The notes under the pieces: generated by a model
What the model was told of the DNA's origin: nothing
Database searches by the model: none
The model's input: only the letters and a program-made list of their open reading frames with translations
Position numbers and translations under genes: made by a program
Source: Escherichia coli
Lineage (GTDB): Bacteria; Pseudomonadota; Gammaproteobacteria; Enterobacterales; Enterobacteriaceae
Reading direction: 5' to 3' (one strand)
DNA: 2,413 nt
Assembly: GCF_003334255.1 (NCBI RefSeq)
Contig: NZ_QOWU01000134.1
In this document: in pieces, positions 1,457 through 2,413 of the stretch
Layout: every line of letters begins with the position of its first letter
Position numbering within the stretch: position 1 is the stretch's first letter

Positions 1457-2413
1457 TCAGCTAATCGTGATGCCTGCAGTGGCTTTCTTCATCACCACAA
1501 CCAGCAAATCGCTGATACTTGCTGTGGGATACCAGTTATTTACCAGCCATGCTGACACCGAAAACTCCAGTGTCATGTGACCGTGACCGGCAGGCATATC
1601 AATAACGCCACTGTAAATCAGCGTATTATCCAGCGCGGTACGGTTATAAATTTCAGCACCGTTTTTCCGCACTATCAGACGGCATGAGGAGTAAATATCA
1701 GTATGCTCTCTCTCATGCTTAGCGCCACTGAATGCCACCGCCGGAATAACAATCTGTCGGTCAAACGGCTGATCGTCATAAACCCTGACGGTAATGGTCC
1801 CTGATGGCCACCGCTCCGGTGCACGGGAGTCCCGGGGGAAAGCTTTGCCCACTGTTTTAACGAGATCGCCTTCAATCTGGTTCGCGGACAGTTTTCCCAG
1901 AACCCGACAGTTCTCGTTAATCGTGACGTTGTTGAGCGTCCCGGAATTCGCATTCACGTTACCGCTGATATCAGCATTTCTTGCGGTCAGCCTGCCCTCC
2001 GGCGTCAGGGAAAACGTCGGGGGATTGCCGGACGAGGTGATACTCACCGCAAACAGCCGCTTCAGGAACACATCGTTCATGAACAACTGATTCCCCTGCG
2101 CCACAAATAACGGCGTGGTGTTGCCGTCCTCCGGGTTAATCATCGCAATACGGTCAGCCAGCAGCAGTATGTTGCTCAGGGGCTGGCCATCAGTATCCTC
2201 AATCCCCGCTCCAATACCGGCAACATAGGGTATGCCATTTTTTGTTTTCTGTACCTTCAGCATGTAAAGTGCAGCAAGGTCATCATTTGTGTCCTTCTGC
2301 ACGCGCTGTATCTGCTGTATGGTGGCGCTCTGGTCTTCCAGCGTTTTACTGACCGTCTGCGTGATTTCATTGCGGGTTTCTGTGATGGTGGTCTGCATTT
2401 CCGCCATCTCGTC
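1457..2413 (-). CDS. J: Host specificity protein J (central tail fibre / tail tip), C-terminal 318 residues; 5' end lies beyond the window end
   Basis: The minus-strand reading frame is open from the window edge (codons at 2413..2408 encode D, E ahead of the track's MAEMQ) to TGA at 1459..1457. It sits immediately upstream of lom, as in lambda, and is a long uninterrupted frame. The J assignment rests mainly on synteny and on my recollection of prophage J C-termini; I cannot align it here. Confidence 0.8.

Follow-up and report, generated by a model that had tools for sequence, protein, structure and literature searches.

A J protein C-terminus with a 1A2-type receptor-binding domain and OmpC as its predicted receptor in a P-EibA-like prophage of Escherichia coli

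The 2,413 nucleotides of Escherichia coli DNA analyzed here (contig NZ_QOWU01000134.1, referred to below as the window) contain the C-terminal end of a lambda-like J (host specificity) protein. This J is very probably (rough probability, 0.88) the distal part of the trimeric central tail fiber of a P-EibA-like, lambda-like siphovirus prophage, carrying a receptor-binding domain (RBD) of the 1A2 type and having OmpC, not LamB, as its predicted receptor. The RBD type is already characterized in 1A2, is very common, and is ordinary; no new biology is involved. The receptor of the prophage can nevertheless be read from 500 bases, with non-K-12 alleles of OmpC as the prediction in place of LamB.

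Translation of the minus strand gave a frame free of stop codons from position 2413 down to position 1460. A preliminary description of the window had placed the frame at 1457 to 2413 with 318 residues and had left the strand unstated, and both the coordinates and the residue count were exact. The frame runs through the right edge, and the gene therefore extends upstream beyond the window; full-length J has 1156 to 1157 amino acids in the closest relatives, and the window holds the C-terminal ~27% of it. The minus strand encodes all three genes of the window (Table 1), in the order J-lom-stf known from lambda.

Table 1. Positions of genes, domains, and terminator-like elements in the window
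Feature	Position	Strand	Details
J C-terminus	1457..2413	minus	318 codons plus TGA (1459-1457); lambda-type tip attachment/host specificity protein
Phage_Tail_Tip (PF09327)	1937..2320	minus	Fragment residues 32-159; Pfam E = 2.7e-23
Specificity module	1460..1960	minus	Fragment residues 152-318; counterpart of the segment after lambda J residue 964
Ig_GpJ_C (PF12421)	1460..1852	minus	Fragment residues 188-318; model positions 1-135 of 135; Pfam E = 1.3e-37
Terminator-like hairpin	1419..1438	minus	GGGCACC-AGAAA-TGGTGCCT followed by TTTTT; between J stop and lom start; pattern match
lom, complete	790..1389	minus	Ail/Lom-family outer-membrane beta-barrel, 199 aa; PHROG 108, E = 5.5e-94, positions 1-199 of 199
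Terminator-like hairpin	657-686	minus	With T-run; directly after lom stop; pattern match
stf/orf-401-like side-tail-fiber N-terminus	3..638	minus	212 residues, running off the left edge; PHROG 366, E = 3.2e-82

Identification of the frame as J drew on chain, profile, and domain searches. Compared to PDB chains (phmmer), the 318-residue fragment matched A8 gpJ (9wca, “A8 gpJ 713”; E = 5.8e-112) and lambda gpJ (8xcj, E = 2.5e-90; 8iyk, E = 2.1e-89), and the alignments to these chains reached the very C-terminus. The NCBIfam profile lambda_TipJ was aligned over positions 841 to 1163 of 1163 (E = 1.4e-149); its score of 500 was below the full-length cutoff of 1950 because only 27% of J is in the window. 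Two Pfam domains were found in the order expected for J, with PF09327 followed at the extreme C-terminus by PF12421, a family annotated as [quoted passage not shown] The preliminary description had reasoned that a frame dissimilar to J or host specificity proteins would belong to a different tail protein, and the phmmer, lambda_TipJ, and Pfam matches dispose of that concern. Homologues of the tape-measure gene H and of M, L, K, and I precede J in the phage PhiR5_1 and JE86-ST05 loci, which places J in a lambda-like tail gene cluster; these upstream genes were read from near-identical loci, outside the window.

In the gpJ nomenclature of Ge and Wang (PMC11101478), which distinguishes shaft, central straight fiber, and RBD, the PF09327 stretch spans the equivalents of the lower helical shaft and of the beta-sheet prism (the central straight fiber) in lambda gpJ. 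The match to Ig_GpJ_C was complete, which means that the whole RBD is in the window, together with the beta-prism fiber and part of the alpha-helical shaft. The proposal that the entire receptor-binding end lies inside the window was thereby upheld.

Structure prediction, suggested in the preliminary description as a check, pointed to the same family. An AlphaFold2 monomer model of the last 173 residues encoded in the window, made with a 26-sequence alignment, had a mean pLDDT of 80.8 and an all-beta RBD with the Ig-like beta-sandwich fold of solved gpJ. The top four Foldseek matches of the monomer model were all gpJ fibers, namely, 9wcb and 9wca (63% identity) and 8xck and 8xcj (47%), with E values of 1e-17 to 1e-18 and TM scores of 0.70 to 0.74; the next match was more than 13 orders of magnitude away. 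Entry 9wcb ([quoted passage not shown]) contains A8 gpJ713 and three OmpC chains, and 9wca is the closed state. Variation among RBD homologues was not concentrated in predicted loops relative to strands (crude mean identity, 0.69 versus 0.67).

Among solved structures, A8 gpJ was the best match in both sequence and fold, and it shares its architecture and its C-terminal strand with the J of the window. The two RBDs differ by indels in two loops; A8 has PRTN--SY at one loop, and the residues NFNSNNQQS are extra in A8. Assignment of the window RBD to the A8 type was rejected, as an identity of 62% over lambda residues 965 to 1132 (63% in Foldseek) is that of a distinct subtype, with fold and receptor class in common and a different range of OmpC alleles: K-12 OmpC is an efficient receptor for A8 but not for 1A2. 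An FhuA/T1-type tip was also rejected, since 9l9p aligned only to fragment residues 8 to 123, which belong to the fiber part, and left the RBD unmatched.

Whether the C-terminus was of the lambda (LamB-binding) type or a divergent variant had been left undecided in the preliminary description, and the window alone was sufficient for an answer: it is divergent, being 45% identical to lambda and near-identical to 1A2. Lambda gpJ (8xcj, 8xck, and 8iyk) is homologous over the whole fragment (E of ~1e-90), with the same order of shaft, prism, and Ig-like RBD. When identities were counted over lambda J residue ranges, the fragment was a mosaic with 23% identity at 815 to 899, 75% at 900 to 964, and 45% at 965 to 1132; the block matching 900 to 964 is a conserved stretch. 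Over residues 985 to 1132, identity was 41% (61/150), with several loop indels, far from the high identity expected of a lambda-type LamB-binding RBD, and this type was rejected.

Other gpJ RBDs compared over lambda residues 965 to 1132 were 100% (JE86-ST05 prophage), 99% (PhiR5_1), 67% (Lambda_2G7a), and 44% (phage 434) identical to that of the window, and the phi330 RBD was 64% identical. The value for 434 likewise led to the rejection of a 434-type RBD. As in the window, the J proteins of 434 and phi330 are lambdoid central fibers with Ig_GpJ_C-type RBDs, and both need OmpC, but their RBDs represent lineages separate from that of the window. Phi330 infects K-12 through K-12 OmpC, which 1A2 does not use.

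The closest characterized relative of the specificity module was 1A2. In the work of Brödel et al. (Nature 2024, PMC11338833), natural gpJ C-termini were grafted onto lambda gpJ after residue 964, and the chimeras A8 and 1A2 were kept. The 1A2 DNA is printed in the Supplementary Information of that paper, and the reference used here was machine-read PDF text with indel errors. Plain tblastn against this text gave a broken alignment of 53% because of the optical character recognition (OCR) indels and was replaced by a frameshift-tolerant dynamic-programming alignment. Across 173 codons (NADISG to stop), 159 were clean and identical, 12 were OCR damaged but compatible, and 2 were mismatches. The grafted part accounted for 167 of these codons (153 clean and identical, 12 compatible, and both mismatches), and the 6 codons before the junction were identical. 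At least 98.8% of the readable 1A2 positions were identical to the window.

The two mismatches (window residue first) were F228L and R235K. The former is probably an OCR error, as F is conserved at this position in every RBD class. The latter is a real natural polymorphism, since K, the residue of 1A2, is also found in PhiR5_1. On sequence, the specificity module of the window is essentially identical to that of 1A2, with which it also agrees in length and C-terminal end. The two differ at synonymous DNA sites and in context: 1A2 sits on residues 1 to 964 of lambda gpJ, whereas the module in the window sits on a natural fiber with a shaft 23% and a prism 75% identical to lambda.

Delivery data for 1A2 (PMC11338833) were obtained by applying particles to an MG1655 lamB ompC double deletion strain in which ompC alleles were supplied solely from plasmids. 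With 20 of 23 OmpC alleles, 1A2 particles delivered the reporter to 76 to 99% of cells at the top multiplicity of infection (MOI), while delivery was ≤2% for alleles G1, G2, and G40. Wild-type lambda particles gave ≤3% in the same lamB ompC deletion background. In wild-type MG1655, with K-12 OmpC, 1A2 delivery was 5% at an MOI of 50, compared to ~99% in MG1655 with chromosomal EDL933 OmpC. Strain origins could be assigned to just two of the alleles, G1 (apparently K-12) and G17 (EDL933). The recipients differed solely in their ompC allele, which identifies OmpC as the receptor of 1A2; up to residue 964, the chimera is lambda gpJ, so that the determinant coincides with the segment present in the window, and the graft alone was enough to turn lambda particles from LamB to OmpC. 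According to a later preprint (bioRxiv 10.1101/2025.02.28.640725), EDL933 OmpC is recognized by gpJ-1A2, which is employed there in EB003, a therapeutic delivery particle against O157.

In the deposited source data for Extended Data Fig. 2 (PMC11338833, supplementary file 10), the 1A2 and A8 values in panel C (OmpC-EDL933) repeat those in panel B (OmpC-MG1655). The repetition is probably a copy-paste slip in the table, and it weakens that one panel; the data for G17 show efficient delivery.

These data bear on two readings of the receptor other than OmpC with the allele range of 1A2. A lambda-type LamB-binding C-terminus would fit the fold and family shared with lambda gpJ and the 75% identity of the fiber block just above the RBD; it is nonetheless extremely improbable, as the RBD is only 41 to 45% identical to that of lambda and as chimeras with the near-identical 1A2 segment deliver into lamB-deleted cells according to the ompC allele supplied, succeeding where wild-type lambda stays at ≤3%. 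One or two residues, or the native fiber, might instead direct the protein to another outer-membrane protein (OmpF, another porin, or FhuA) or shift its range of OmpC alleles. Residue 235 (R here and K in both 1A2 and PhiR5_1), the 12 1A2 codons that were not cleanly readable, and the discussion in PMC11101478 of point mutations in lambda J that can open the use of OmpF all lend something to such a change, which is still quite unlikely against the ≥98.8% identity at readable 1A2 positions. The more distant RBDs argue in the same direction: phage 434 is a classical OmpC-using lambdoid phage (PMC11101478), phi330 fails on the Keio ompC knockout, a defect that complementation reverses (literature), and A8 uses OmpC as well, so that OmpC use at identities of 62% (A8), 64% (phi330), and 44% (434) makes a switch of receptor class by one or two substitutions unlikely. 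For FhuA in particular, T1-type tips match the fiber part and not the RBD.

The statement in the preliminary description that the receptor class could be predicted from the window was borne out in that OmpC is predicted through near-identity to 1A2, whose use of OmpC is experimental. By the same comparison, the range of OmpC alleles open to this J is predicted to match that of 1A2, which covers the majority of natural E. coli alleles, O157 EDL933 among them, but not K-12 OmpC. The J of the native prophage would be expected to behave like the 1A2 chimera; weighing against this, the native shaft and prism, through which signaling would have to pass, are only 23 to 75% identical to lambda, whose fiber carries the module in the chimera. 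A narrower variant of the residue 235 argument, in which R235 and the native non-lambda shaft together give an OmpC-allele range or a co-receptor need unlike that of the 1A2 chimera, such as the ability to use OmpC of the K-12 type, is a long shot to which none of the results point; if true, the variant would supply an additional specificity module for engineered delivery particles.

By analogy with lambda gpJ-LamB and A8 gpJ-OmpC, the 1A2-type reading would imply the following course of adsorption. The last ~130 to 170 residues would form the Ig-like RBD, and the three RBDs at the fiber tip would bind an outer-membrane porin trimer through their distal loops. Insertion of the loops into the porin mouth would spread the base of the RBD trimer, and the change would be relayed upward, with the prism twisting, the shaft flipping, and the tail tip opening for DNA ejection. 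Loop insertion and tip opening were proposed for lambda (PMC11101478), and this open/closed mechanism, demonstrated by others for lambda and A8 and applied here by homology only, is the best-supported model for the J of the window.

The source of the window was closest to prophages of a known type. Positions 1 to 1845 were 99.8% identical at the DNA level to prophage P-EibA of E. coli ECOR-9 (AF151091), in which the J end, lom, and an orf-401-like stf are arranged as in the window; the P-EibA record stops 389 bases into J and so lacks most of the RBD that is present in the window. At full length, the window was 99.7 to 99.8% identical to four complete E. coli chromosomes, such as that of JE86-ST05, in which the prophage end adjoins a tRNA-Ser gene and the hya operon, and it was 97.1% identical at the DNA level to phage PhiR5_1. 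A gene for an immunoglobulin-binding, YadA-like adhesin lies ~2.5 kb downstream of stf in the closest records (eibA at 2747-3925 in P-EibA and a YadA-like family gene at 8782-10245 in JE86-ST05). With this gene downstream in the closest records, the window belongs to a prophage type that carries Eib.

Most lambdoid prophages of E. coli are defective. The J gene might on this account be a relic that no longer serves adsorption, although its sequence class would still be the OmpC type; the window is part of one prophage end, and many database copies of the module are fragments or fusions. This reading is unlikely, if less so than the changes of receptor or range considered above. The 318-codon frame is intact, and the JE86-ST05 prophage has an intact J (1156 amino acids) with a full run of tail genes upstream (tape measure, M, L, K, and I). 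PhiR5_1, whose RBD is 99% identical, was deposited as a complete phage genome and lists E. coli C as its host; J proteins of this type thus work in a live phage. The PhiR phages also appear in a study of defense systems without assignment of an outer-membrane receptor (bioRxiv 2025.11.03.685801).

The 501-base module was present in 3641 of 5426 complete E. coli genomes. At ≥95% DNA identity, it was found in ~2180 records, or ~40% of the complete genomes; O157:H7 strains and CFT073 are among them, and the usual annotation is gpJ. A further search at ≥95% protein identity found the module in 53 phage records, many of them Stx converting. Variants of the module formed a continuum in the protein database, with almost all of them from E. 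coli. In several database proteins (P0037, P0044, P0047, P0050, and P0116 among them), a J RBD was joined to unrelated domains (Lom, HTH, minor tail protein L, or terminase); such joins probably reflect miscalled or chimeric gene models from contigs that are short or misassembled, and not real fusions.

In thousands of genomes, the module in the window carries a gpJ annotation; it has been used in an engineered therapeutic particle, and a homologue of it has been solved in complex with OmpC. Prediction of the receptor helps in choosing indicator strains for induction, in forecasting which E. coli lineages are open to lysogeny by a phage that carries an Eib adhesin, and in interpreting ompC variation as phage driven.

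Downstream of J, the J-lom spacer is 67 bases long, and lom follows J directly, as in lambda. Terminators are annotated in phage 434 at positions equivalent to both hairpins in Table 1. The window contained four terminator-like sites, compared to 2.5 expected from shuffled sequences. From these patterns, J, lom, and stf may be separated by terminators, possibly leaky ones. Searches of the window for Rfam RNA families and sigma-70-like promoters found none. Many Stx phage records matched the window only from base 997 rightward, which indicates a mosaic breakpoint inside lom.

Residues ~135 to 212 of the stf product consist of collagen-like G-X-Y repeats with one break in register (GDPGGPPGP), which were matched by models of collagen-like adhesins, and the G+C content of this region is 68 to 70%. 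To our knowledge, lambda Stf has no collagen-like repeat at the equivalent place. Antisense to the repeat, two proline- and glycine-rich ORFs lie on the plus strand at 8-535 (175 amino acids) and 43-345 (100 amino acids); these are most likely artifacts of the codon periodicity of the repeat and not genes.
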